A stretch of DNA of 64,000 bases. Origin: Promethearchaeia archaeon. GTDB lineage: Archaea > Asgardarchaeota > Lokiarchaeia > Sigyniarchaeales > SOKP01. The position numbers and the translations under genes were made by a program. Positions 1,584-18,397 of the stretch are shown piece by piece. The stretch covers positions 160,001 to 224,000 of the forward strand of contig JAHQWG010000016.1 of the NCBI GenBank assembly GCA_029856045.1, given 5' to 3'. Below the pieces are notes generated by a model that saw nothing but the letters and a program-made list of their open reading frames with translations, had not been told where the DNA came from and did not search any database. Positions within the stretch are counted from its first letter, which is position 1, and every line of letters starts with the position of its first letter.

Positions 1584-2225
1584 ATGATTTTTTTTATAAT
1601 TCTGTTAATAGTTTCTATTTACTTTTCAATTTTAGATCTTCGAAATCGAAGAATTCCAATAAAAAATTATAAAATTTTATTTCTAATCAGTTTATTTTTT
1701 ATTTTTTTTACATTTAATTCTCTTGATTCTGCCTTAATCCTTCTTTTTTTATTACAGATGATTTTTTTGTTTTTTTTTTGTTTTATTTTTTATGTGTTAA
1801 ATTTTATTGGGGGTGGAGATGCAAAATACATCTTTTTTATTTCAATTTATAATTTTTGTTACTCATTTGAAATAGTTAATTTAATCGATTTCTTTTCTAT
1901 TTTCATTTTAATTTATTTTTCATTACTCATACCAAATTTAGCAAAAAATCAATTTTATTCTCGTTCATTATATGAGCAATTTTTAATATTTTTTAATAGA
2001 AAGTGTTTCTTTATAGATTTTTATCTGAAATTGTGTTTCAAATTTTTTCCTTTAAAATCCATAAACAAAATTGATGATATTAAATATAAAATAAAATCAT
2101 TCTTAATTTTATTTGATTTTAAAACGGGTAATTTTTATTTTATTTCTCAGTATAAAATGCCTGTTATAATTGTGTGTTTTTTAGCGTATCTTTTCTATTT
2201 GACTCTGAATTTTTGTGTATTTTAA
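1584..2225 (+). CDS. Prepilin peptidase, A24 family (TadV/PibD-like)
   Basis: Multi-pass membrane protein with both catalytic Asp motifs, SILDLRNRRIP and IGGGDAK. Confidence 0.85.
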   Translation: MIFFIILLIVSIYFSILDLRNRRIPIKNYKILFLISLFFIFFTFNSLDSALILLFLLQMIFLFFFCFIFYVLNFIGGGDAKYIFFISIYNFCYSFEIVNLIDFFSIFILIYFSLLIPNLAKNQFYSRSLYEQFLIFFNRKCFFIDFYLKLCFKFFPLKSINKIDDIKYKIKSFLILFDFKTGNFYFISQYKMPVIIVCFLAYLFYLTLNFCVF

Positions 2226-2249
2226 ATAGATCAATTTATAATATAAAAT

Positions 2250-2558
2250 ATGTTATTGAAAAAAAAAACATTAGAAAAAGCTATAGATTTTATTTCCAAT
2301 ATTAATTTTGATGATTCAGAACAATTGAAGATTTTTAATAAAGTTAAAAAAATTATCTTAAATCTAAGGGATCCTGAAATATCAAAAAAAATAGAAGAAT
2401 TAAATGAATTATCTTCAGACTTACCTTTTATTGAGTTATTTAAACAAATTTTGGAGAAATTAACTATCGAACAATTGAATTCAATTTTTAAGCAGTTTAT
2501 AAATAATGAGGATCTCATTGATTATTTACAAGATATGCTTTTAGAAAAGATAATTTAA
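2250..2558 (+). CDS. Hypothetical helical protein
   Basis: ORF co-oriented with its neighbours and with typical composition; no recognisable motif. Confidence 0.6.
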   Translation: MLLKKKTLEKAIDFISNINFDDSEQLKIFNKVKKIILNLRDPEISKKIEELNELSSDLPFIELFKQILEKLTIEQLNSIFKQFINNEDLIDYLQDMLLEKII

Positions 2559-2646
2559 TCTTTTTAGGCAAAGAACTGTCTATCCAAATTATTGTAAGAT
2601 TTATTTTTTCGTTTTTTTTATAAATCATCTAATTTTTATATACATA

Positions 2647-3396
2647 ATGTCCATCTTAATCGATATTATTCTCGTTATGTGTGCATATCTTTATGTTTTA
2701 ACTGTGATATTAATCCCAAAGTATTTAAAAGAAAAGGGAAAGATTTCAAAATTTGCTGCACGCAAAACAGTTCACTTACTTGCTGGTCTTTCAATATTTG
2801 TAACTCCCTTTTTAGAATTTTATTGGTATTCACTTATAATTTCTGGCTCCATGATGCTCCTTACCTATTTAAGTTCTAAAGAGAGTAAAGTGAAACAATT
2901 AAAGAGTTTATTTGACGCAATTGGTGAGGAAGCTGAAGAGAAAGCTGGATATTTACAAGGACCATTTAATTACTGCCTTTCAATTTTTATTCTTATGTTA
3001 TTTTTTTCAATATTTGCTCCAACAATGTTTTATTTTCCAATTTCAGGAATTTTAATTATGATTATATCAGATACTCTTGCGAGTGTGGTAGGGAAAAAAT
3101 ATGGAAAAATTAAAATTAAAATTAAATGGACTCATACAGAAAGGACGATTATTGGCTCATTAACTCTTTTCTTAACAGCTTTTTTCTTATCATTTTTTTC
3201 TTATCTTTTATTCGGTGTCATTATTCCAACTTCTCAGCAGGTTATTAATATTGCTCAAGTTATCATTTTCTCATTTTTAACAAGCATTGTTGCAACAATT
3301 ACAGAACTATTATCACCAAGTACTTATGATGATTTAACTGTACCGATAATTACTACACTAATTATCTTTCTTCTTTCTTCGATTTTAATTGCTTAA
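2647..3396 (+). CDS. CTP-dependent polyprenol/dolichol/phytol kinase family membrane protein
   Basis: ARKTVHL, SDTLASVVGKKYG, RTIIGS and DDLTVP motifs of the SEC59/VTE5/Dgk1 family. Confidence 0.85.
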   Translation: MSILIDIILVMCAYLYVLTVILIPKYLKEKGKISKFAARKTVHLLAGLSIFVTPFLEFYWYSLIISGSMMLLTYLSSKESKVKQLKSLFDAIGEEAEEKAGYLQGPFNYCLSIFILMLFFSIFAPTMFYFPISGILIMIISDTLASVVGKKYGKIKIKIKWTHTERTIIGSLTLFLTAFFLSFFSYLLFGVIIPTSQQVINIAQVIIFSFLTSIVATITELLSPSTYDDLTVPIITTLIIFLLSSILIA

Positions 3397-3490
3397 CATA
3401 ACTTTAAATTATTGACTTGTCATTTTAAAATTAAAAGTGATAATTTAATAAAATTTGAAAAAGATAAATTTGATATAACTAGGGATTTAA

Positions 3491-3910
3491 ATGGAAATTG
3501 AAAAAAAAAGAGAAACAGTATGGAAATTAAAACAAAAAGAAAAACAAAAATATATTGAGTTAATTTCAGTTGAGGAATCTGGAGAAGTTAATCAAATTAA
3601 ATTGTCCTTAAAAAAAATGGAAGATGCAATAACAATTGAAATGAATAAAAGTGAATTTAATAATTTTTTATCAATATTATTAGCGTTTAAAGATGTAGTA
3701 ATTGGTTCAGAGATAAGTGTATTAACTCCAGATTTCAAAGATTTTGATGCAATAAAATCTCAAGAAAAAGAAGAATCTGTTTCTATTTCAGAAAAAAATG
3801 AGGTTATAGAAAAAGTTCCAGTACAAGAACTCACGGATGTTCAAGATAACGTTCCAAATGAAAAACTACATGAAGAGGAATTGAATCCTAAGGAATGGGA
3901 TCCCTGGTAA
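3491..3910 (+). CDS. Hypothetical protein with acidic tail ending EWDPW
   Basis: Clean ATG ORF; its last codons overlap the predicted SRP RNA 3' end antisense. Confidence 0.7.
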   Translation: MEIEKKRETVWKLKQKEKQKYIELISVEESGEVNQIKLSLKKMEDAITIEMNKSEFNNFLSILLAFKDVVIGSEISVLTPDFKDFDAIKSQEKEESVSISEKNEVIEKVPVQELTDVQDNVPNEKLHEEELNPKEWDPW

Positions 3911-4227
3911 TTAGAGTGATCTGATCCTTGAAAATAAAAAAGAAATTTTTATAGCATATTTCCATTCTTACCACCCGTCACCAATAAGCGTAAATTTTTT
4001 GATTTACGACTGCTCCATCCCTGACCTGGTCGGGTTCATCATCAATTGAGTATATTTCTCCTACAAGAAATATCTCAAAAATAACTTACCTAATTGGGCG
4101 AATGGATCATTGAAACATTAAATATGTATAAAAATCATTTTTAATTCCTCAGATCATTTCTCAATCCGTTATAGAGCATTTACGGTCCACCCAGTATAGG
4201 GTTTCAGGAATTGCCCTAGATTCCCAC
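3895..4227 (-). ncRNA. ffs: Signal recognition particle (7S) RNA
   Basis: Minus strand shows helix 8 GAACCCGACCAGGTCA-GGGA-TGGAGCAGTCG and helix 6 ATATTTCTT-GTAG-GAGAAATAT. Long-range pairings ATGATCTGA/TCAGATCAC and terminal GTGGGAATC/GATCCCAT; TTTATA about 30 nt upstream. Ends are approximate. Confidence 0.9.
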
Positions 4228-4335
4228 GATCAATAATAATATTTTTATTAACAAATATAAAGCTTATTATAAATGTAAAAAGGTTTTAAATAATTTATTT
4301 TGAAAAATCCAATGATAATCAATTAGAAAATGTAA

Positions 4336-4839
4336 TTAAGTTCTTTTTTTTTCAATTTTGAAAATACAACATCTCTTTTCCTTATCTGTTATCATACATT
4401 CTATCTCTGAAACAGAAGCACGATACAATGCAAATTCTCCAAAACCAGATAATATTCCAGACATGAAATAACAAATATATTTAAAATTATTCTCCATGTA
4501 TGATGAAATATTATGATATAATTTTAAAATTATAAGTTCCTCCGATATTTCTTGAGGTTCAATATTCCCCCATCCCATATTGCTAAACATTTCACAAAAT
4601 AGATCTGTTAAATCTTTAAGAGTTTTAGGTTTTAAATTTTCTTCCCAAATTTCTATTAAAACCCTACCCATTTTTTTACCTAACCATATTAATAAAGGTT
4701 TTACTCCCTCGCCATATATAGATGATAACAAATCTATAATCTGAGGAGGAAAAAACACAAATCTCTGATTAAATAATCTGTATATTCCATCAGAATATTC
4801 TAATCCCTTTAATTTTAAATCTTTCATCTTTTGATACAC
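4336..4839 (-). CDS. V4R (4-vinyl reductase)/Bet3-TRAPP-related domain protein
   Basis: GKKMGR, MGWG, CYFMSGILSG and EIEC...CIFKI match the V4R pattern. Confidence 0.85.
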   Translation of the reverse strand: MYQKMKDLKLKGLEYSDGIYRLFNQRFVFFPPQIIDLLSSIYGEGVKPLLIWLGKKMGRVLIEIWEENLKPKTLKDLTDLFCEMFSNMGWGNIEPQEISEELIILKLYHNISSYMENNFKYICYFMSGILSGFGEFALYRASVSEIECMITDKEKRCCIFKIEKKRT

Positions 4840-4915
4840 ATTGAGATCTTCTAAAATAATTAATATGTTTTTAAAATATTTTCACAAGTTTTTATAATTA
4901 TTTATATGATCTTTT

Positions 4916-5212
4916 TTGATTATGTTAAATTATAATCTGTCAATAATTATTGTTTTATTATCTTTTTTGTTTATTATATTTATTTTTTCAATATTTACGA
5001 CTAATATAGATGCATTGTTCATATTTATTTTCTACATGGTCTTAATAATCTATTTGAATCTAATTATTTTACAAAATTATATAGATTTAAAAAGTTCTAA
5101 TGATCTTCTTAATTTTAATTTTTTAACATTTCTGGCAAATCTTTCTTTTATTTGTGAATTTTTTATTGGAATCTTTATTTTAATTCAAGTAATATACAAA
5201 TTCATCACATAA
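4916..5212 (+). CDS. Possible small membrane protein
   Basis: Hydrophobic ORF filling the intergenic gap; could be an artefact of T-rich sequence. Confidence 0.35.
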   Translation: MIMLNYNLSIIIVLLSFLFIIFIFSIFTTNIDALFIFIFYMVLIIYLNLIILQNYIDLKSSNDLLNFNFLTFLANLSFICEFFIGIFILIQVIYKFIT

Positions 5213-6611
5213 AATTTAAGATATTTACAAAATTTAAACTAATTGAAAGAATAATTATAAAAATTAACACAAAAAATAAATTGGAAGTAAATATAATAAT
5301 TATTTTAGACTCTATGCCGATTATTTTAGAGAAATAATACCCACTTATAATGTTGCTTAATAAAAAGGATCCAAATATGAGTATCAGATCAAATGAATCA
5401 AAATTATTATAAAAAGGAATAGTTGTTGTAAATTCTGGATTATTTAAAAGATTAATATGATAAAAAAAAGATGGAAATACACCAGAAATGACCCCAAGAA
5501 TAAAAGGTAATAAAAAAATAAAGATTAAACTTTTAAATTTTTCACCTTTAATAATGATTCGTTTTCGCTTTTCTAATTTTTGATGCATTGATATTATTTC
5601 TAATAGATCCCAAATTTTATTTGCAGTATGATATGTATCTTCATGGATCATTTTTTTTACTACATTTAAAATCAGTTTGCAACGTGGTGATTTTAGATTA
5701 AAAATAAATGAATCAAGCATCTCTTTTATTGATATTGAATTTTTAATCAATAATGATATGGGATGTTCCAATTTTTTCTGAAAAAAAGTAGGTGTTTTTT
5801 TATACGCATAATATAATGCATCCTCGGGCGACGTTTTCCTTGATAACATAATTGCAAAATTTTTTAAAAATAATAAAAAACCATTAAACTCTCTTCTATT
5901 ATTTTTAGGCTCAGAGCTTAAAATCCCTAATAATTTTATATCCTCATTTAAAAATTTTGATGACAAATATCTAATAATAATGAAATAGAGAGGTATGATA
6001 AAGATTAATGAGAGAGATTTAATTTCTTGAAGTATTATGAGAAAACAGCTTCCTATCGGGAAAAATAAACCTATAAAGAAGATTATACTTAATTTTGATT
6101 CAACGCTTCGTATAAATGTTTCAAATAAATCTTCTGAATAGGAGTATTCATTTATTTTAACCAAATTAGTGTCTTCAAAATTATTAGAGATTAAGTCATT
6201 TACAAAACTTTGAAAATTTTTTGAAATGATATTTAAATTTTCTAACTCATTTTCTGGGTTTTTGCCAAATTGAATTTTTTTTATAATTGATTTAAAAAAA
6301 TTAGAAACTGGATAATTATATTTAGAAATAGATTCAATAAAATTAATACATTTATCGGAAATTGATGTAAAAAGGGAATTAATGAGAGCAAAATCTAAAA
6401 TTATTAATTTTAAGTAAGCATTAATATTTAACTCTTCATTTTTTAATCTTTTGTATAAATATATATTAAATATGTAAGTAATTATTATAGAAGAAATAAA
6501 AGAAAATAGGCAACTTATTTGAATTACAAACTGCATCTCCAAGATTTTAAAAATGATATTAAAATAAATTGAAAAAATAAAAAATAAGAAATAAAAAGTT
6601 AAAAAAACCAT
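5205..6611 (-). CDS. Type IV pilus membrane platform protein (T2SSF; TadB/TadC/ArlJ-like)
   Basis: Two cytoplasmic helical domains (IQFGKNPE; SRKTSPEDA), each followed by TM helices; downstream of the secretion ATPase. Confidence 0.8.
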   Translation of the reverse strand: MVFLTFYFLFFIFSIYFNIIFKILEMQFVIQISCLFSFISSIIITYIFNIYLYKRLKNEELNINAYLKLIILDFALINSLFTSISDKCINFIESISKYNYPVSNFFKSIIKKIQFGKNPENELENLNIISKNFQSFVNDLISNNFEDTNLVKINEYSYSEDLFETFIRSVESKLSIIFFIGLFFPIGSCFLIILQEIKSLSLIFIIPLYFIIIRYLSSKFLNEDIKLLGILSSEPKNNRREFNGFLLFLKNFAIMLSRKTSPEDALYYAYKKTPTFFQKKLEHPISLLIKNSISIKEMLDSFIFNLKSPRCKLILNVVKKMIHEDTYHTANKIWDLLEIISMHQKLEKRKRIIIKGEKFKSLIFIFLLPFILGVISGVFPSFFYHINLLNNPEFTTTIPFYNNFDSFDLILIFGSFLLSNIISGYYFSKIIGIESKIIIIFTSNLFFVLIFIIILSISLNFVNILNFM

Positions 6612-6783
6612 AGTAGTTGCTTTGTTTATATCGCTAATTAATAGATTATATTTAAGAAAAATTATTTTTGAATATCTTGAACTTGGCTTTTTAATTTTAA
6701 ATTGTGGAATTTTTTTATTTCGGAAGAAAAAACAGAAATTGCAATATAAATCAAGAAAACTAATAAAATAACACCTTTTATTT

Positions 6784-7185
6784 TTATAAAAAATTTAAGA
6801 AAATTACTTCTGAAATTATATATATTTTTAAAATGTGATAACCTGGGTTTTCATAAAAAAAATTTATAAATTGGTAAATAAATTCGTAAGTATATTCATG
6901 TTCAATATTATTTACAATAAATGTATACTTTATTCTATTTCCGGAAGCTAATAAACTAAAATTTTCTGGTATCTCAATAACGCAACTAAAATTTAAAGAG
7001 GGATTTTCAATTGTTCTTGTTATTCCAGAGTTAATAATAGATATACTTGTTAAATTATTTTTAATATCCGACTCAAGATTGTAATTCTCGATAAATTTAA
7101 AAAAGGGAGCAATTATAGAAAGAAAAATAACCAATATTGTAATTCCAAATCCAATCATAAGGGATTTCTCTAAAATTTCTGTCAT
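6784..7185 (-). CDS. Minor pilin-like protein
   Basis: N-terminal hydrophobic helix (EILEKSLMIGFGITILVIF) followed by a beta-rich domain; lies between the ATPase and platform genes. Confidence 0.6.
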   Translation of the reverse strand: MTEILEKSLMIGFGITILVIFLSIIAPFFKFIENYNLESDIKNNLTSISIINSGITRTIENPSLNFSCVIEIPENFSLLASGNRIKYTFIVNNIEHEYTYEFIYQFINFFYENPGYHILKIYIISEVIFLNFL

Positions 7186-9368
7186 AGCATATTTTTATTA
7201 TAATTTTTAAATTTAAAATCCCCTTTTTTTAAATTCTTCTTGATTTTCTCCCAAAATTGAATTAATTCCAAATAATTATTTTTTGATGCCAAAAATCCAA
7301 TAACATTAAAAATTGAAACTAAATCTGAGATTTTATTGGATCTAAATTTGGAAAGGAAATCAAAAATTTCTTTAAATAGGTTTATTATTAGATTAAAATC
7401 TTCTTCCGGTAGATGTTCATACTTTATTATTTTTTTTAATATATTCGTATGATAAAGGTTCTTTTTCCTCATCCAATTATTTGTCATTGGATTATAATCA
7501 AAAATCTTTTCAACAGAAATTCTGTTATTTACACTAATTTCTATAATCGCCACGATTTTTCGACCAATTGGTAATTTTTTCATTAAAATAATTAGATCTA
7601 AATCATTCAAACATATTTTTTCAATTTTAAAATGATATAGGAACCGATTAATTAATGCGGAAATATCTTTTGAATGAATTGTTTGAAACCCTCTTAATCC
7701 TGCGCTTAAACAATGAAATAAAGCTTTACACTCCTCCATTGTAAGAATCTCGCCCAAAAATATAACATCTGGAGTTCTATGTAATAAGGTTTGAATTAAA
7801 TTACTTTTTGTAAATTGAGAATTTTCAGTATTTTCTAATGATTGAGTTTTATATTTTACTTGATGCATATCAAATTTTAATTCATCTAATGATTCAACAG
7901 CATTTTCAACATAAATCTTTCGAAATTCTTTAGGTGTTAATAGATCAAATGCATTAATCAGAGTTGTTTTTCCTGTGTCTGTTTCTCCAGTCACTGTTAA
8001 ATTTATTCTCTTGATAATACAAAAGTATAAGAAGGAAGCAATTTCCGAGGATAAAGTTTGATAAAATATTAAATCAGGAATTGAAAAAATATTTTTATTC
8101 AATTTTCTTATATCTAAACAAAATCCATTCAATTGTAATGGGAAGATATCAATTGAAAATCTACAATAAAAATAATTATTTTTTATAACAGTTTTAACAC
8201 TAGGATGGTTTATATCAAGCCTTTCTCTACTATATAATCTCAAAAAGGTTTTAATTCTCTCAATTTCTTCCAAATCTAAGCTAATTTCTGTACGACATCG
8301 TCCATATATTTGATGATTAAGATAAATTTTATCATTTGGCTGATCTAAAAATATTTCTTCAATATAATCATCAATTAAAAGTGGTAATAATTTTTTAATG
8401 TTAAGTATATTAATAGATGAAAAAAAAGACAATTTATGCTTTTCACTGGTTGATAAATTTGGCATAATTTCATTCAAATAAATTAGTGAATGTTTTAAAA
8501 GTAAATCAACCAATTCTTGGAATGTGAGAATTTTATCAATTTTTAATGATTTTAAATAGCTACTAATTTTATTTATTATTTCTTTATAATAATCTGATTT
8601 ATTAGGATTTTCAAAAAAGATTTCAACTCGATATAATTTCTCAGTATGATATTTCCAATTATAAATTGATATTTGAAAGTATTTGCTTGATCCAATAAAA
8701 TATGTTTTTATAAGAATTTTATTTTCAATCAAATTTTCACAATTGAATAACTTACATTGAGTTTTTGCTTTTTCAGTAAATTTTTCTCTTGAATGATTCA
8801 AATCAAATGTTTTTTGGGTGCTTATTAGATTTTTAATAAGATTCAAAGAATCTAAGAGTAATAAGATTTTTTTAATATTTTCATTTAACTCATAAAACCA
8901 TTTTTGAAAAGAAAGATCATGACTATTTTTCTTTAAATTTAACTTGAGTTGTTTCCTTAATTTCTCATATAAAAAGAAAGGATCAATTTTTCTTAAATTT
9001 ATATCAAAATCTAACTCTAATTCAAAATATCGAAATTTTTTTCTGTCCCTATGGACTAACTTTTGAATCTTTTTAAATATTTTATTCAAATGCTTAAAAT
9101 ATTTAATATAATCTAAAAAATATGAAATATATTCATCTTCAATTATTTTATGATTTTGATGGTCAAATATTGTGCTTATTGTTTTATTTTGATATTTTAT
9201 TAAACAATTTATCAAACAAATACGACATTTACTATTAAATAAATGCGAACAATTATTAAGATGAAAATTAGAGCAGTTTAAACAATTTATTTTAATATTC
9301 CACAGTTTTTCATCATAGCTTTCTGAGAATACTGGGATTAGAAAGCAATTTTTAAGATTTTTATACAT
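7182..9368 (-). CDS. Type II/IV secretion ATPase (TadA/CpaF/ArlI-like) with Cys-rich N-terminus
   Basis: DDYIEEIF, LDIRK, Walker A TGETDTGKTT, PDVIFLGEI and His box QTIHS. Confidence 0.9.
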   Translation of the reverse strand: MYKNLKNCFLIPVFSESYDEKLWNIKINCLNCSNFHLNNCSHLFNSKCRICLINCLIKYQNKTISTIFDHQNHKIIEDEYISYFLDYIKYFKHLNKIFKKIQKLVHRDRKKFRYFELELDFDINLRKIDPFFLYEKLRKQLKLNLKKNSHDLSFQKWFYELNENIKKILLLLDSLNLIKNLISTQKTFDLNHSREKFTEKAKTQCKLFNCENLIENKILIKTYFIGSSKYFQISIYNWKYHTEKLYRVEIFFENPNKSDYYKEIINKISSYLKSLKIDKILTFQELVDLLLKHSLIYLNEIMPNLSTSEKHKLSFFSSINILNIKKLLPLLIDDYIEEIFLDQPNDKIYLNHQIYGRCRTEISLDLEEIERIKTFLRLYSRERLDINHPSVKTVIKNNYFYCRFSIDIFPLQLNGFCLDIRKLNKNIFSIPDLIFYQTLSSEIASFLYFCIIKRINLTVTGETDTGKTTLINAFDLLTPKEFRKIYVENAVESLDELKFDMHQVKYKTQSLENTENSQFTKSNLIQTLLHRTPDVIFLGEILTMEECKALFHCLSAGLRGFQTIHSKDISALINRFLYHFKIEKICLNDLDLIILMKKLPIGRKIVAIIEISVNNRISVEKIFDYNPMTNNWMRKKNLYHTNILKKIIKYEHLPEEDFNLIINLFKEIFDFLSKFRSNKISDLVSIFNVIGFLASKNNYLELIQFWEKIKKNLKKGDFKFKNYNKNML

Positions 9369-10168: not shown

Positions 10169-10822
10169 ATGGTGAGAGTTACAGCAGATCATCGCATATA
10201 TATAAAAATTTTATACTGGGGAATGGCTAGCTCGGGTAAAACTACTATAGTGGATACTTTATATCGTCTTACAAAAGAACAAAAAAAAGACATAGAACCT
10301 ACAGGAAATTTAACGAAAATTGCTATGGCAAGTGGCTCTACTCTCTATTTTGATAGAGGAATTTTTCAATCTACAAAAGAACGAAAAGTCTATTATCATG
10401 TTTATACAGTTGCTGGACAAAGTCGATTTTCTCCTTTAAGAAAAAAAATATTTAAAGGAACAGATGGAGCAATATTTGTTGTAGATTCTCAAACTCATCT
10501 TTTCGAAGATAATATTGAATCATTAAAAGAATTAAAAAAAGTAGCTAAAGGGTCATTAATGAAAGAAATTCCTCTGTTGGTAATGTTAAATAAGAAAGAT
10601 TTAACAGAAACGATAAATGCAAGTGAATTTGAACAAATTTTAAAGGAAGAAGAATTATGGTATGAGGCACCTCATAAATTAACGCTCTGGAATCCTATAA
10701 TTTACGAATCTTGTGCATTATATAATAAAAAAAGAGAAGTATATCGAAGTTTTTATGAATGTGCTAGGAGAACAGCATTGTATCATATATATGGAAATGG
10801 AACAGCTCCATTAGATAATTAA
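10169..10822 (+). CDS. MglA-like small GTPase (lacks the intrinsic Arg finger)
   Basis: IKILYWGMASSGKTT, GSTLYFD, YTVAGQ, DGAIFVVDSQ, NKKD. Confidence 0.85.
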   Translation: MVRVTADHRIYIKILYWGMASSGKTTIVDTLYRLTKEQKKDIEPTGNLTKIAMASGSTLYFDRGIFQSTKERKVYYHVYTVAGQSRFSPLRKKIFKGTDGAIFVVDSQTHLFEDNIESLKELKKVAKGSLMKEIPLLVMLNKKDLTETINASEFEQILKEEELWYEAPHKLTLWNPIIYESCALYNKKREVYRSFYECARRTALYHIYGNGTAPLDN

Positions 10823-11480: not shown

Positions 11481-13073
11481 ATGGAAAAAATTATACCATT
11501 TATGATGGGAGATATAAAATATGTCCCCTCTAAAACTAGGAGAACATTTATTGAAGAAATAGCTTTGTCTTTATGTGTCTTATTTGAAGAAAATGGTAGT
11601 ATCATAAAAAAATGGGGTACAATTGAAACAATTTCCTTATGCTTTTGGCCGGTGAGATTAATCCCTTTGAGTGAAAATCGTACTTGTATAACTAGTTATT
11701 TATTTCAAAATGCTCCTAAAGTTCCTGTTGGTCCTTTTAAAAAAATTCCATTAAATCCTGAAGCAGTTATTAAGGCTTCTGATCCTGAATCTTTTGTTAA
11801 ATCTTTAATCTCATATGATTCTAAATATCTTTCTAGTAAGGCAAATTTTTCACGAAAAATAATTATTCAAGAAGCTTTATTTGGTATTGAAGAAATCAAT
11901 TTTTTTAAACCCTTTTTCAATAATAAATTTGATTTAAAGTCATTTGAAGAGAAGAATTTTATTCTGTCTGGAGATCCCATAACAAAGAGTGTCAATCAAA
12001 TCAATATTCGTAAAGAAATTTATGATTTTATAAATTTTACAGAAGTTAAAATATTAGATCAATATAATGAAAAAATCAATAAATTGTGTGACAAATGGAT
12101 TGAAAAAACTTCAAAAGATGTTGATAATTATAAAATTAAAACAATAGATCACCAAAAGGAAGAAGAACAGTTAGAAAGATTGAATAAAGAATTAAGGGAA
12201 GAAAAAGAGAGAGACCTGCATGATTCTGATGAAGAGTTATTAAATTCAGGAAAATTTAAGATTAATGATACTTCATCTGTTATAATTAATGAAATTGAAT
12301 CATTAAAAAAAGAAATATTAAAACTAGGTCAGTCAGCAAAAGGAAAAAATCTACTTCTAATTAAAGAAAACATTAAAAACTCATATAGAGAGTGTAAAAA
12401 AGTTGAAAATTCCATAACACAATTTGATAACGAATTAACTATATTAAAAAGAAACTTAATAAAAGAAAGAAATAATATTCAAAAAAACCATAACTCAATA
12501 ATTTCTAGTATAGAATCCAATATTAATTCAATACAAGCAAAAATGAACTCTGATGAGAAAGATTATAATAAAGAATTTGTAGATCTTCAAGATATATTAA
12601 AACAAATTCAAAAATTAAAACAAAAAGTCAATAATAATTTTTTAATCATTAAAGAAATGGAGTTGGATCAAGTACAAAAATTTTTACATGAATATACTCT
12701 AGAGATCAAAACAGAAAATGTGATTGTTGGAATACCAATCTTTATTTTCAATTTTCGAAGTCAAAAGGCGGAAAAAGTAGATAAATACATGCCTGTATTA
12801 CCTATTTTAATTAGTGAAGGGAAAAAAAAGGGGAATGTTGCAAATGTAAAATCTAAAATAAAAACAATTTTTACAGATCGTTTCATTAAAATATTTAATA
12901 AATATAAGGCAATGAAAGATTTAATCTCGGTAGAAAGTAAGAATAATAATATATTAGAAATTAATAATTTAACATCTTTATTATTAGAATCTATAGATGA
13001 GCTTAGAATGAAGGAGCTAATCTCAAATAAAATTGCAACAAATGTAAAAGATCTAATTGAATCTATAATTTAA
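11481..13073 (+). CDS. Long coiled-coil protein with globular N- and C-termini
   Basis: Heptad-rich central region of about 200 aa, flanked by segments containing CFWPVRLIP and GIPIFIFNF. Confidence 0.75.
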   Translation: MEKIIPFMMGDIKYVPSKTRRTFIEEIALSLCVLFEENGSIIKKWGTIETISLCFWPVRLIPLSENRTCITSYLFQNAPKVPVGPFKKIPLNPEAVIKASDPESFVKSLISYDSKYLSSKANFSRKIIIQEALFGIEEINFFKPFFNNKFDLKSFEEKNFILSGDPITKSVNQINIRKEIYDFINFTEVKILDQYNEKINKLCDKWIEKTSKDVDNYKIKTIDHQKEEEQLERLNKELREEKERDLHDSDEELLNSGKFKINDTSSVIINEIESLKKEILKLGQSAKGKNLLLIKENIKNSYRECKKVENSITQFDNELTILKRNLIKERNNIQKNHNSIISSIESNINSIQAKMNSDEKDYNKEFVDLQDILKQIQKLKQKVNNNFLIIKEMELDQVQKFLHEYTLEIKTENVIVGIPIFIFNFRSQKAEKVDKYMPVLPILISEGKKKGNVANVKSKIKTIFTDRFIKIFNKYKAMKDLISVESKNNNILEINNLTSLLLESIDELRMKELISNKIATNVKDLIESII

Positions 13074-13142: not shown

Positions 13143-13328
13143 ATGGGTCTTTATAGTAAGGTTAAAGAGAATATATCTGAAAAATTTTCAATTTTTCAGT
13201 TAATGTCTTTATTAGAGATGGATGAATCAGATATAAGAGAGTGTAGAAACATTTTGAAACAATGGTATTTACTGGGTTACATCAAAAGAATCTCTAAAAA
13301 TATGTATCAGAAAATAAAAAAATCTTAA
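13143..13328 (+). CDS. Small winged-helix-like protein
   Basis: 61 aa; helix-helix-wing pattern ending GYIKRISKNMYQK. Confidence 0.55.
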   Translation: MGLYSKVKENISEKFSIFQLMSLLEMDESDIRECRNILKQWYLLGYIKRISKNMYQKIKKS

Positions 13329-13380: not shown

Positions 13381-13959
13381 TTAATTGATTACAATATTTA
13401 TTTGCGGAAAGATGAAATTAAGCATTTTTTTAAAAGACTCAAAAATTCCAATACCATCTGTTGCAATGGTATTAAGAATATCAACTTTTTCAAAAAGATT
13501 GAAATTAATTTCATTTAAAAATTCTGATTTTTCTATTTTATTTTGCAAATCCCATTTATTTAAACAAATAATAATAGGCATATCATAAAATTTATTTGAG
13601 AAAAAGGTATATAATTCATTCCAAGACCTCAAATTCTGTTTTATACATGTATTTTGTGAATCTACAATAAAAATTATTCCATCAACTCCTATTAATGTTG
13701 CTGGTCGTGTACTTGCATAAAAATCTTGCCCCGTAGCTGAATATAATAGCAATTTAATATTCCATTCAAAACCTTGAAAATTCAATACTCCAAAATCGAA
13801 AAATAATGTTCTTCCAGTTGTACTTTCTATTGATTTTAATATTTCTTGTTTTCCAAAATATTTAAATAAGCTTTTTAATGATGTAGTTTTTCCTGACATT
13901 GCAGGACCATAATATACAATTTTAATTTGAATTGTTTTGTTACAATAGTCAAATAGCAA
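13381..13959 (-). CDS. mglA: MglA-family small GTPase
   Basis: KIVYYGPAMSGKTT, GRTLFFDF, GQDFY, GVDGIIFIVDSQ, NKWDL and ATDGIGIF closely match MglA motifs. Confidence 0.88.
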   Translation of the reverse strand: MLFDYCNKTIQIKIVYYGPAMSGKTTSLKSLFKYFGKQEILKSIESTTGRTLFFDFGVLNFQGFEWNIKLLLYSATGQDFYASTRPATLIGVDGIIFIVDSQNTCIKQNLRSWNELYTFFSNKFYDMPIIICLNKWDLQNKIEKSEFLNEINFNLFEKVDILNTIATDGIGIFESFKKMLNFIFPQINIVIN

Positions 13960-13963
13960 AATA

Positions 13964-14863
13964 TTACCCCCATAAGGATTCTAAATGATCTCCAATTTTT
14001 ACATGCTTCCCATTTTTTAATAATGGATCAAACCCTTCACCCCATTCATAATATATAAATGAAAGTATCCTTTCTATTGGCGCGATTTGATAATCTATTG
14101 TATTTAAAAGGATTTTTCCACTAATTGTTGCATCTAAACCTAAAGTTGATAGTAAATTTAAACGATTTAAAATGAAAAAAGCTCTTTTTGATGCAGAAAA
14201 GAAATTTTGGATCTCTTTTTTAAAAATATTTTTTTGGATCTCTTCTTTTTCTATAGAAAAATCCAAAAGGCTAATCATTGTACCATCATCAATATTTGTT
14301 GTGTTTGTTTTTTGGGATAAAATCCTCTTCATTCTTATTATGGAATTTTCAGTATCTTGTGAACTTTTTCTAAGAATTCTCCTTTCTAATTTTAGATTAA
14401 TATCACTTGAGTTATCACCTTCTAACTGTACTGATATCGAGTTATTTATTAGCATAATAGAAAGAAATAGAAAATATTTTTCACGCATCAATTTTTTTAT
14501 TATTTTAATTTTCTGTTGATTTTTTATTTGGATCTCTATTCCAATAACCCAAGATTTAAAATTTTTAATATTATTTAAAGCTTTTAAAACAACACTTGAA
14601 GGGCATCTAATAATAATTCTTTGAGAATTATAATCAATTTCCTCATTTTTACATAGGTTTTGATATTCAATTTCTGATACAAAATCTGTATAATAGATTA
14701 ATTCTTTTCTAAAATGCATCAGATCACATAATTCTGCCGAATAATTATCAACATCAATTTCATTTTCTCCAAATATCATTATCGGTATTCTATTAAGAAG
14801 ACTATATAAGATAAGGGATATTTTTTTTTCACCTATCTTATCTATTGAATGAATAATTTGCAA
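13964..14863 (-). CDS. Putative DENN-core (folliculin-like) protein
   Basis: LYSLLNRIPIMIFGE...ELCDLMHFRKELIY...SWVIGI resembles the cDENN pattern; lies between roadblock and GTPase genes. Fold assignment is by eye. Confidence 0.5.
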   Translation of the reverse strand: MQIIHSIDKIGEKKISLILYSLLNRIPIMIFGENEIDVDNYSAELCDLMHFRKELIYYTDFVSEIEYQNLCKNEEIDYNSQRIIIRCPSSVVLKALNNIKNFKSWVIGIEIQIKNQQKIKIIKKLMREKYFLFLSIMLINNSISVQLEGDNSSDINLKLERRILRKSSQDTENSIIRMKRILSQKTNTTNIDDGTMISLLDFSIEKEEIQKNIFKKEIQNFFSASKRAFFILNRLNLLSTLGLDATISGKILLNTIDYQIAPIERILSFIYYEWGEGFDPLLKNGKHVKIGDHLESLWG

Positions 14864-14886
14864 GTTCCTAATCCCTCCTTAATTAT

Positions 14887-15921
14887 TTACTTTATAATTA
14901 ACTCTCCTAAAAGCTTTTTAATATCAAAATGTTTTTTGTAATCTTCAATAACTAATGCTTTTTTAATAATTTGGTTTAATTTATTTGCATACTGAGGTAT
15001 TATCAACCTGAGTAGGCCTAATTTATATTTTCCTTTATCAATAAGAGAACTAAAAATTCCTTTATCAAGACCATAAATAAATTGAAAATTGGTTTCACAA
15101 TCTAAAAGAATTGTATTAATTTGCATTTTCTTCAACAACCAAGCGCATCTATTTGATGTTTGAAATAATGAGGAACTCATAGCTGCAGTTGTTTCAAGTG
15201 GATTATACCGAAAAATTTCTTTTTTTATAATTTTTGAAGCGATAAAACCTCCTTCCAGCGTTAGAAAAGAACATCTTAAATCAGGTATCGAAAAAGAAAA
15301 AGTTTTTAAAATTTCATCTAATTGATAAGAATCCTTTTCAGAAAACCCTAATGAATAGGCTGATAATTTAAAATTTCTTGAAAAATCTTCTTTTACATCG
15401 AATTCTTCCATCATCTTCTTTATTTGTTCGTTGTTAAACTCAATCAAAGGTGGTTTGAAAGATTCACCTGATGTAATCAATGTTCGTTTAATTTTCATAA
15501 GACTATCTCCTGTTTGTAAAAAAATACTTCCAAGATTTACTGTTGGGAGTGTAGTAATTGCTATAAAAAACTCATTATCATTTTCAAAAATACCTTGTTC
15601 TTCTAAAATTTTATTAAGTGGAGAATCATATGAGTTTTTAAGTGGAGCGATTAAAATTTTTGCCTTTTTCCCCTCAATTAATATATATTTTAGTTCTTTT
15701 GGATGTAAATGAATACCGATATTATAAATTGCACTTGTGGCTGCAGAAACACCAAAGATTTCATCTTTTGAAAACCAAACCCCACTTGATTGAATGGGAT
15801 TACCATCTCTCTGAGTTAAGACAACATTTTCTACTCCTTTTAGATTTTTAATTTGATCCAAATGTTTTCCTATTCTTTCTCTAATTGTCATTAAATAACC
15901 TAAAAATTGGAATTTAACCAT
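14887..15921 (-). CDS. Tandem roadblock/LC7 (MglB/LAMTOR-like) protein
   Basis: Two repeats: VVLTQRDGNPI...SAATSAIYNIG...ILIEG...NLGSI and FLTLEGGFIAS...AAMSSSLF...ILLDC...KLGLLR. Confidence 0.85.
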   Translation of the reverse strand: MVKFQFLGYLMTIRERIGKHLDQIKNLKGVENVVLTQRDGNPIQSSGVWFSKDEIFGVSAATSAIYNIGIHLHPKELKYILIEGKKAKILIAPLKNSYDSPLNKILEEQGIFENDNEFFIAITTLPTVNLGSIFLQTGDSLMKIKRTLITSGESFKPPLIEFNNEQIKKMMEEFDVKEDFSRNFKLSAYSLGFSEKDSYQLDEILKTFSFSIPDLRCSFLTLEGGFIASKIIKKEIFRYNPLETTAAMSSSLFQTSNRCAWLLKKMQINTILLDCETNFQFIYGLDKGIFSSLIDKGKYKLGLLRLIIPQYANKLNQIIKKALVIEDYKKHFDIKKLLGELIIK

Positions 15922-16240
15922 TTTTTTAAAAATAGATTTTTAAACTCCATTATTTTTTAAAACTCGTAATTTCTGGTCTCAAAACGTAAGTAAAATTTGC
16001 GATTAAAAGCAAAAATTTAAAATATATAGATTGATTATTAATAATGTATTTAAATCGTAAATTAATCGGCGTGAGCTCGGATGACGGTATAACTTCCAAA
16101 AAATGATGGGTTCCTTTCAAATTACGATAAAAAAAATGTGGTTTTAATTTTAAATTAAAACTGAAAAAAGTACAATTAAAAAAATAAAAATATCCGCCAA
16201 AGTAATTTAAATTAGTCTTCAAAAACCGATTCCACTTAAT

Positions 16241-17738
<1,498 letters not shown>

Positions 17739-17865
17739 TTAACTTTTCTTAATTTTTTTTATATTCTTTTAGAGAAATTTAATTCAAATTTTCTTGTTAA
17801 AATAAAAAAACTCTTTAAAATTAATTTTAAATAATAAAAACATTTTAATATAATATGAAATATAT

Positions 17866-18003
17866 GGGCCTGTAGATCAGTGGAAGATCATTGGGTTCGG
17901 TCTCGTATCCAAACTTAGGCTTGACTTGCACACCAGCTTGATTGATTTTCATTCAAGAGGTCAAGAGTTCAAGAGGTCACGGGTTCAATTCCCGTCAGGT
18001 CCA
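17866..18003 (+). tRNA. tRNA-Ala(UGC) with two introns (25/26: 17890-17918; 37/38: 17931-17967)
   Basis: Acceptor GGGCCTG/CAGGTCC-A with G3:U70, anticodon arm CTTGA-CT-TGC-A|T-TCAAG, T-arm ACGGG-TTCAATT-CCCGT. BHB CTTG/CAAG at the canonical intron; relaxed BHB at 25/26. Confidence 0.9.
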
Positions 18004-18397
18004 TTTTTTTTATTGAATTTATATAAAATAGATCTTTTATTTTTTTGATTATATTTTCTGCTTTAATCATACATTTCCTGCTTGAGAATCCTTTCGGAAA
18101 CTCAATCCAAACAATATATTTTTCAACATTAATGTTTAAAGGAAGTATTATTGAATACAGATTATTCGTTTGAATTATTAATTTTTTCAATAAATATAAT
18201 TGTTTATAGTTAATAGAATAAAAAATATCTAAAATTTTTTTAAAAGATGCAATTAATTTTTCTCCCGTTTTTATGTTTGAAAAAAAAATTAAACCTTCCT
18301 CTGTTCCTAAAATAATTTTAAATTTTGTGCTTTGAGGGTTAAATAAATGTTCTAAAATTTTATAAATTTCATCATAATTTGTGATTTTATTATACAT
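17969..18397 (-). CDS. Divergent roadblock/longin-like small protein
   Basis: helix-IILGTEEGLIFFSN-helix-beta strands-helix topology; the last 35 nt overlap tRNA-Ala antisense. Confidence 0.55.
   Translation of the reverse strand: MYNKITNYDEIYKILEHLFNPQSTKFKIILGTEEGLIFFSNIKTGEKLIASFKKILDIFYSINYKQLYLLKKLIIQTNNLYSIILPLNINVEKYIVWIEFPKGFSSRKCMIKAENIIKKIKDLFYINSIKKMDLTGIEPVTS

Follow-up and report, generated by a model that had tools for sequence, protein, structure and literature searches.

A three-gene operon of a double roadblock protein, a longin-less DENN-fold protein and an MglA-type GTPase in Asgard archaea

A three-gene operon encoding a roadblock protein (gene 1), a DENN-fold protein (gene 2) and an MglA-type GTPase (gene 3) is located on the minus strand of a 64,000-nucleotide (nt) stretch of DNA from a Promethearchaeia archaeon of the Lokiarchaeon type and the order Sigyniarchaeales (GenBank assembly GCA_029856045.1, contig JAHQWG010000016.1, positions 160,001 to 224,000). 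This whole stretch is called the window, and all coordinates refer to it. The genome assembly consists of 55 contigs with a total of 3.34 Mb and a completeness score of 100%. The window is very AT-rich, with a G+C content of 22-26% around the operon locus.

Architecture of the operon and its roadblock and GTPase genes

The genes of the operon, in the order of their transcription, and the domains of their products are as follows.

14887..15921, minus strand: gene 1, tandem (double) roadblock protein; open reading frame (ORF) of 344 amino acids (aa) as listed
15634..15867, minus strand: N-terminal roadblock/LC7 domain of gene 1, residues 19-96 (Pfam PF03259, Robl_LC7)
14950..15360, minus strand: C-terminal roadblock domain of gene 1, residues 188-324, MglB-like fold (AlphaFold2 (AF2) model and VIA-align)
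14864..14886, minus strand: spacer of 23 nt between genes 1 and 2, holding a Shine-Dalgarno-like GGAGG
13964..14863, minus strand: gene 2, longin-less DENN-fold protein (cDENN plus dDENN); ORF of 299 aa, TTG start
14414..14863, minus strand: cDENN-like alpha/beta domain of gene 2, residues ~1-150 (strand and helix order b-a-b-a-b-a-b-a-b-b in the AF2 model)
14039..14392, minus strand: dDENN-like helical domain of gene 2, residues ~158-275 (AF2 helices and DENN-family alignments)
13381..13959, minus strand: gene 3, MglA-type small GTPase; ORF of 192 aa, TTG start

The three genes are co-oriented and tightly packed, with gaps of 23 nt and 4 nt (13960-13963) between them. By sequence inspection, the GGAGG motif (14874-14878) lies 10 nt ahead of the TTG of gene 2, and another Shine-Dalgarno-like motif, a GGGGG run (13967-13971), is found within the final codons of gene 2, shortly ahead of the TTG of gene 3. 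Judged by these gaps and motifs, the layout is that of a translationally coupled operon. All three ORFs are real genes, since each has hundreds of homologues and the order and strand of the genes are kept in 124 of 130 related loci. The start of gene 1 is probably the second ATG, at 15891 (334 aa), because its orthologues are mostly of 333 aa and their alignments begin at about residue 7-13 of the 344-aa ORF.

Gene 1 has 399 homologues; those among the matches listed are mostly of 333 aa and show at least 61% identity. The N-terminal domain was identified by the Robl_LC7 profile (residues 19-96; E 4e-7, 30.1 bits, cut-off 23). The AF2 model of the protein has an overall predicted local distance difference test score (pLDDT) of 44.8 and is usable only at residues ~190-325 (pLDDT ~70-80), which are modelled as a-b-b-a-b-b-b-a, the secondary-structure order of a roadblock domain. 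In VIA-align, the best match of this C-terminal domain is MglB of Myxococcus xanthus (6hjm_A; Z 13.6, root-mean-square deviation 2.5 Å, 119 aligned residues). It is followed by MglB of Thermus thermophilus (3t1r_A; Z 13.3), solved Asgard roadblock proteins (Z 12-13) and LAMTOR/MP1-p14 (Z 10.5-11). The two halves of the protein were compared with each other by hhalign, using an alignment of 40 non-redundant orthologues taken from the related loci, and aligned over 141 collinear columns (E 2.1e-5, probability 77%). Relative to its C-terminal counterpart, the N-terminal copy is longer by an insertion of ~20 residues. One chain thus holds two homologous roadblock domains, which may pack against each other as in an MglB or LAMTOR dimer; the N half of the model has a pLDDT below 50. 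The Pfam match of the N-terminal domain, the MglB fold of the C-terminal domain and the alignment of the halves confirm a tandem roadblock protein with an internal duplication.

The best phmmer matches of gene 3 among PDB sequences are MglA proteins of T. thermophilus and M. xanthus (E 3.6e-27, 3t12_A, to 2e-26); beyond MglA, Arf1 was matched with an E-value of 1.4e-6 and Rab with ~1e-4. The protein contains the P-loop GPAMSGKT, the switch-I sequence GRTLFFDF and the motif NKWD. The switch-I sequence aligns with (E/D)RTLFFDF of MglA, so that R50 corresponds to the intrinsic arginine finger of MglA (R53 in M. xanthus). The G3 motif reads S74-A-T-G-Q78, compared with TVPGQ in MglA and DxxGQ in other Ras-like proteins. 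R50 and Q78 are invariant across 30 orthologues, one of which has Thr in place of the G3 Ser. The Pfam family Gtr1_RagA scored 20.1 bits, under its cut-off of 22. By its sequence, gene 3 encodes an MglA-type GTPase and not a Rag-type GTPase, because the 192-aa protein consists of a G domain only, with no extra domain.

An earlier note on this DNA, made from the letters of the sequence, had described three tightly packed co-oriented genes, a fused tandem roadblock protein and an MglA GTPase. Its coordinates and gaps agree exactly with those given above; the fused tandem roadblock is borne out by the Robl_LC7 match, the MglB fold and the hhalign comparison, and the MglA assignment by the match to 3t12_A, R50, Q78 and the Ser in place of the G3 Asp.

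Fold of the gene 2 protein

No Pfam or NCBIfam match was found for the gene 2 protein, and phmmer and family-profile searches of PDB sequences returned chance-level rows only (a designed repeat protein and a ferritin). The protein has 277 homologues; those among the matches listed are of ~300 aa, and every source name given for them is an Asgard label. On the nearest named contigs that bear these genes, which come from 'Promethearchaeota archaeon' metagenome-assembled genomes, the identity is 93-95%. The family is narrow, because its profile, run against 1.84 billion representative proteins, returned only 97 clusters, almost all of them of ~300 aa or fragments. No longer, fused forms were found among the 97 representative clusters.

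The AF2 model, built with a 40-sequence alignment, has a pLDDT of 80.5 and a predicted template modelling score (pTM) of 0.79. It is composed of an alpha/beta domain with five parallel-type b-a units and a hairpin, and of a helical domain with helices at residues 158-186, 193-199, 203-240, 249-256 and 263-274. The DENN matches of this model emerged only in an exhaustive VIA-align search and not in Foldseek, the top rows of which are P-loop and Rossmann-like folds with non-significant E-values. In VIA-align, DENND10 is found at rank 1 (Z 12.2), folliculin at ranks 2 and 3 (Z 11.6 and 11.4), SMCR8 at rank 5 (Z 10.1), C9orf72 at rank 8 (Z 9.6) and DENND1A at rank 11 (Z 9.4). All five DENN-family matches cover residues 1 to ~275-285 of the model, and the target range of each is the cDENN plus dDENN part of the matched protein (for example, folliculin 345-558). 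Residue 1 of the model is aligned to FLCN 345 and DENND10 157. The structural alignments, together with orthologues of ~300 aa, show no uDENN/longin domain in the gene 2 protein, because the chain begins at the cDENN domain.

The 299-aa protein could instead be a degenerate P-loop/ASCE (additional strand, catalytic E) ATPase-like domain with a helical lid, in which case the DENN likeness would be generic and not a sign of homology. The Z values of P-loop ATPases against the model (RuvB-like helicase 10.2, HP0525 9.8, GspE 9.8, FlaI 9.5), the P-loop and Rossmann-like rows of Foldseek and the failure of the family profile to find a DENN protein in the PDB are in line with such an origin. However, most of the ATPase matches are limited to the alpha/beta domain (residues 1 to ~150), whereas the DENN matches include the helical domain and occupy ranks 1, 2, 3, 5, 8 and 11. 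The Walker A motif (GK[ST]), with its lysine and threonine, was not found in the gene 2 family, where G32 is the sole invariant residue after strand 1. Forty-five diverse members of the family were also scanned one by one against Pfam. Folliculin_C was the only family matched by more than two of them (3 of 45, best 4.8e-4, all sub-threshold), and one match (0.015), located in a scan of 20 members, aligns member residues 5-54 with profile positions 6-55, collinear at the start of the domain. One further sub-threshold match, to Pfam DENN (0.093), falls in the same N-terminal segment of a family member. The lack of Walker A and these sub-threshold matches would favour a DENN protein, and the genomic partners of gene 2, a GTPase and a roadblock protein, also speak against an ATPase. 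An ATPase-like origin is therefore regarded as improbable.

The gene 2 protein had been called DENN-like in the earlier note, and at the level of the fold this call stands, with five DENN-family structures matched over the full cDENN and dDENN length at Z 12.2-9.4. The Foldseek search that the note had proposed as a check of the 299-aa protein gave nothing significant in the PDB; the DENN folds were obtained by VIA-align. A possible second DENN-like gene of the genome (286 aa; hmmsearch E 0.0076) was rejected, with an hhalign probability of 8.9% and no Pfam match.

Conservation of the operon and its proposed function

Related loci were collected from a search of 400 genomes (30 loci), from distant families (20 loci) and from named contigs (80 loci). 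Of these 130 loci, 124, from at least 12 Asgard families, keep the order roadblock-DENN-MglA on a single strand, so that synteny across Asgard genomes, suggested earlier as a check, supports the operon. Gene 2 is present in 231 of the 400 genomes of the phylum and in 66 of the 90 high-quality ones. In the most distant families, the identities to the roadblock, DENN-fold and MglA proteins are 24-37%, 24-33% and 42-50%, respectively. The DENN-fold protein is less conserved than its partners, with 50% identity compared with 60-63% within the family and 29% compared with 34-46% in distant families. Across families, conservation of the operon does not extend to a fourth gene. The tandem roadblock family is also missing in all five genomes sampled from families that lack gene 2, one of which is a closed contig with 93% completeness. 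In this small sample, the joint absence of the roadblock and DENN families is consistent with their gain or loss as a unit.

The three genes might simply be neighbours without any functional link. Conservation of their order and strand in 124 of 130 loci and at least 12 families whose proteins share 24-50% identity, the 4- and 23-nt gaps with Shine-Dalgarno-like motifs and the joint absence of the roadblock and DENN families in the sampled genomes make this extremely improbable.

The operon is proposed to encode, as a single transcription unit, a three-component small-GTPase switch of Asgard archaea; a rough probability of 0.55 is assigned to this reading with the roles given here. Folds, GTPase motifs, operon structure and conservation are observed, and from these every interaction and activity is inferred. 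The MglA-type GTPase would cycle between the GTP and GDP forms with a catalytic arginine and glutamine of its own. In the double roadblock protein, the MglB homodimer would have a fused, pseudo-dimeric counterpart that offers a two-roadblock seat to one GTPase, and most likely stimulates hydrolysis by placing the catalytic residues of the GTPase itself. The MglB dimer binds a single MglA and serves as its GTPase-activating protein (GAP) by positioning the Arg and Gln of MglA (Miertzschke et al. 2011, cited via PMC10933270). The longin-less cDENN plus dDENN protein would be a second regulatory subunit that acts in trans with the roadblock platform, most likely as a nucleotide exchange factor or as a co-regulator or scaffold; a role as co-GAP may also be considered. 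Together, the roadblock and DENN-fold proteins would recreate the 'longin/roadblock + DENN' layout of the DENN, folliculin and C9orf72-SMCR8 regulators. Eukaryotic DENN modules consist of longin, cDENN and dDENN domains and serve as guanine nucleotide exchange factors (GEFs), such as DENND1 for Rab35, or as longin-based GAP complexes, such as folliculin-FNIP and C9orf72-SMCR8 (PMC3521125, PMC12290439). Complex prediction with the three chains, in which the DENN-fold protein was a partner, gave an interaction prediction score from aligned errors (ipSAE) of 0.00, which counts neither for nor against binding.

Several observations weigh against this switch. The gene 2 protein itself has no DENN match at the sequence level, whether by Pfam, by phmmer against the PDB or by its family profile, and Foldseek of its model against the PDB returned nothing at E <= 0.001. 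Secretion ATPases with Z 9.5-9.8 reach to about residue 263 of the model, and the margin of the DENN matches over non-DENN folds, as judged from the model, is ~2 Z units, real but modest. The N-terminal half of the roadblock protein is modelled with low confidence. The catalytic arginine of folliculin and SMCR8 is located in the longin domain, which the gene 2 protein lacks, and the roadblock protein showed no arginine equivalent to it. There is also a genome in which the roadblock and MglA genes are found next to each other and gene 2 sits elsewhere.

This last arrangement was identified in genome G167 of genus g10, within the same family (99% complete; locus L132, G167:C76 1510-3130), where the roadblock gene is followed after a 25-nt gap by the MglA gene, and gene 2, with ~51% identity to the window protein, lies on another contig. 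The same displacement is seen at locus L064 (2501-3397), where gene 2 is flanked by a DUF998-like gene and a gene for a pyruvate-formate-lyase-like glycyl-radical enzyme; further loci listed for this variant are L017, L019, L063 and L068. Genome G169 of the same genus (L133) has the canonical operon order. The arrangement in G167 shows that the roadblock-MglA pair can be organised without gene 2.

The roadblock protein and MglA may accordingly form a self-sufficient switch of the MglB/MglA kind, with the DENN-fold protein leaving the nucleotide state alone and serving as a downstream effector or adaptor that would bind the GTP form and link it to, for example, the membrane, the nearby type IV pilus-like machinery or the cytoskeleton. 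This reading is possible, at less than even odds. It would account for the 25-nt spacing of the pair in G167 and the displaced DENN-fold gene beside the pyruvate-formate-lyase-like gene, and for the faster divergence of the DENN-fold protein relative to its partners. The arginine finger that gene 3 itself contains and the presence of a pilus-like locus (A24 peptidase, T2SSE ATPase) 4-12 kb from the operon also agree with it. However, every characterised DENN-fold protein acts on the nucleotide state of a GTPase or belongs to a complex that does so (PMC3521125, PMC12290439), and the DENN-fold gene is placed between the roadblock and MglA genes in 124 of the 130 loci.

A more specific form of the three-component switch is speculative and held only tentatively. 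The operon would be a split version of the tripartite eukaryotic DENN module, in which the pair of roadblock domains replaces the uDENN/longin domain in trans and the cDENN plus dDENN protein docks as an exchange factor or co-GAP for MglA. If this is true, DENN/folliculin-type regulators would have had an MglA/MglB-type polarity switch as their ancestral client, and Rab, Arf and Rag would have taken its place later.

Genomic setting and relation to known systems

An archaeal 16S rRNA gene is located at 16242-17736 on the plus strand, divergent from the operon. Of the 130 loci, 94 have the 5' end of a 16S gene in divergent orientation upstream of the roadblock gene, among them loci in closed genomes from the same order (L044-L046, L051); this adjacency was not seen in other Asgard classes. 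The spacer between the operon and the 16S gene is 15922-16241 in the window and ~300-650 nt long across related loci. Its place beside the 16S gene explains why a contig end so often lies 0.2-1.5 kb from the operon and why binned genomes may miss it. One further feature was identified in the spacer.

15936..15945, minus strand: TATA-like box GTTTAAAAAT, ~15-25 nt upstream of the ATG at 15921

When 16 spacers from the same order are aligned, this box is a conserved block; it is a candidate promoter of the operon, within the spacer shared with the 16S gene. The fixed divergent place beside the 16S promoter in this order could tie expression of the operon to ribosome synthesis, which would recall the growth signalling of Rag and folliculin. 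Other elements of the spacer are also conserved across the order. A GC-rich segment at ~16066-16100 contains CCGTCATCCGAGCTCACGCCGA (minus strand) and may be part of a pre-16S leader or processing stem; a hairpin-like TTCAGT-TATAA...TTATAAC block and TATA-like boxes in both directions are also present.

Just past the 16S gene, Rfam identifies a tRNA of 138 nt (17866-18003, plus strand), which probably contains an intron; none was found by ARAGORN at 17700-18200. The 16S gene appears to be unlinked from the 23S rRNA gene, because none follows it within the window. The Asgard operon was also found on contigs deposited as 'Patescibacteria group bacterium' or 'Candidatus Nanopelagicaceae bacterium' (L083, L091, L120). 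Two of these (L091 and L120) are probably mis-binned, because the operon-bearing contigs carry a 16S fragment with 89-92% identity to the archaeal 16S gene of the window. In one deposit series, several contigs labelled Odin-, Hod-, Hermod- or Thorarchaeota carry Loki-type 16S fragments with 87-91% identity.

A second small GTPase of 217 aa, with ~35% identity to gene 3, is encoded at 10169-10822 on the plus strand. It has the MglA-like G3 motif YTVAGQ and, in GSTLYFD, a Ser at the position of the switch-I arginine. Genera g11 and g12 have its orthologue (~67% identity) just downstream of the operon and convergent to it. In the window, genes for a coiled-coil-like protein of 530 aa (11481-13073) and a protein of 61 aa lie between this GTPase gene and the operon. 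The 61-aa protein (13143-13328, plus strand) has no Pfam match, and sequences with 50-67% identity to it are found in several genera immediately downstream of the MglA gene (L016, L023, L025, L132). The type IV pilus-like locus (1584-9368) includes an A24 prepilin peptidase (1584-2225) and a 728-aa T2SSE-type ATPase (7182-9368). Bacterial MglA governs the polarity of type IV pili, and by this analogy the proximity of the locus to the operon may or may not be meaningful. An Orc1/Cdc6-type gene with the Cdc6 lid and winged-helix domains is found at 323-1195 on the plus strand, so that a replication origin may be close to the start of the window.

The module as such is already known, having been predicted in print in 2020/21 with the folliculin analogy. 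The prediction of the operon by Liu, Makarova, Koonin, Li et al. is said to have appeared later in Nature (2021). In the preprint (Liu et al., bioRxiv 10.1101/2020.10.19.343400, Fig. 5b), an operon 'conserved in most Asgard archaea' is described that codes for a DENN-domain protein together with a roadblock-superfamily protein and a small GTPase which is distinct from Rag; a comparison with folliculin and Ragulator is drawn, and a GEF role is proposed. Judged by that description, the operon of the window is almost certainly an orthologue. In the same description, the GTPase is termed 'Rab-like' and the roadblock protein 'LAMTOR1-like', whereas the GTPase found here is MglA-type and the fused double roadblock protein is nearest to MglB. 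Literature searches found no experimental (bench or biochemical) study of the operon. Tran et al. 2024 (PMC10933270) report MglA-like GTPases from an Asgard genome in which, as a rule, GTPase genes do not share operons with roadblock genes; the roadblock-MglA operon is therefore a useful exception.

The operon resembles the MglA/MglB system of M. xanthus and T. thermophilus (3t12, 3t1q, 6hjm) in the switch-I arginine, the catalytic Gln and the lack of a G3 Asp. It also has a roadblock-fold partner in the same operon, whose C-terminal domain comes closest to MglB in structure. Unlike MglB, which is a single-domain homodimer, the roadblock protein has two roadblock domains in one chain; a DENN-fold gene is placed between the partners, and the host is an archaeon. 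The operon shares with folliculin-FNIP2/RagA/C-Ragulator (6nzd; FLCN 3v42) a DENN fold (Z 11.4-11.6, residues 1-275), roadblock/longin platforms and a small GTPase. However, folliculin has an N-terminal longin domain with an arginine finger and an FNIP partner, neither of which was seen in the operon. Rag GTPases form heterodimers and have a C-terminal roadblock domain, whereas gene 3 encodes a 192-aa G domain only. Ragulator has five subunits including LAMTOR1, and no LAMTOR1-like scaffold was seen at the operon. The order of cDENN followed by dDENN is shared with the Rab35 GEFs DENND1A/B, with DENND10 and with C9orf72-SMCR8 (6ekk, 8p0v, 6lt0, 7o2w; Z 9.4-12.2). These eukaryotic DENN proteins are tripartite (uDENN/longin, cDENN and dDENN) and act on Rab and Arf, whereas the gene 2 protein begins at the cDENN domain. 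Of the possible proto Rag/Ragulator/folliculin-type module suggested in the earlier note, the folds and the operon hold, and the comparison is one of analogy and not of membership, because the GTPase is an MglA-type protein of 192 aa and neither a longin domain nor a LAMTOR1-like scaffold was seen.

Two details are new here: the position divergent from the 16S gene, found throughout the order, and the genus in which the DENN gene has moved away. The refinements useful for experiments are the MglA-type client, the fused double roadblock protein, the longin-less DENN-fold protein, the 16S linkage and the DENN-displaced variant. GAP and GEF assays and determination of the structure of the complex are feasible, because the proteins are small, soluble-looking and conserved. 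In eukaryotes, membrane traffic and nutrient signalling have DENN proteins, folliculin and roadblock/longin platforms among their core regulators, and the operon bears on the origin of these GTPase regulators. Among prokaryotic settings, it shows most clearly a DENN-fold protein encoded together with a roadblock platform and a probable client GTPase, and the partners to be tested are therefore named.

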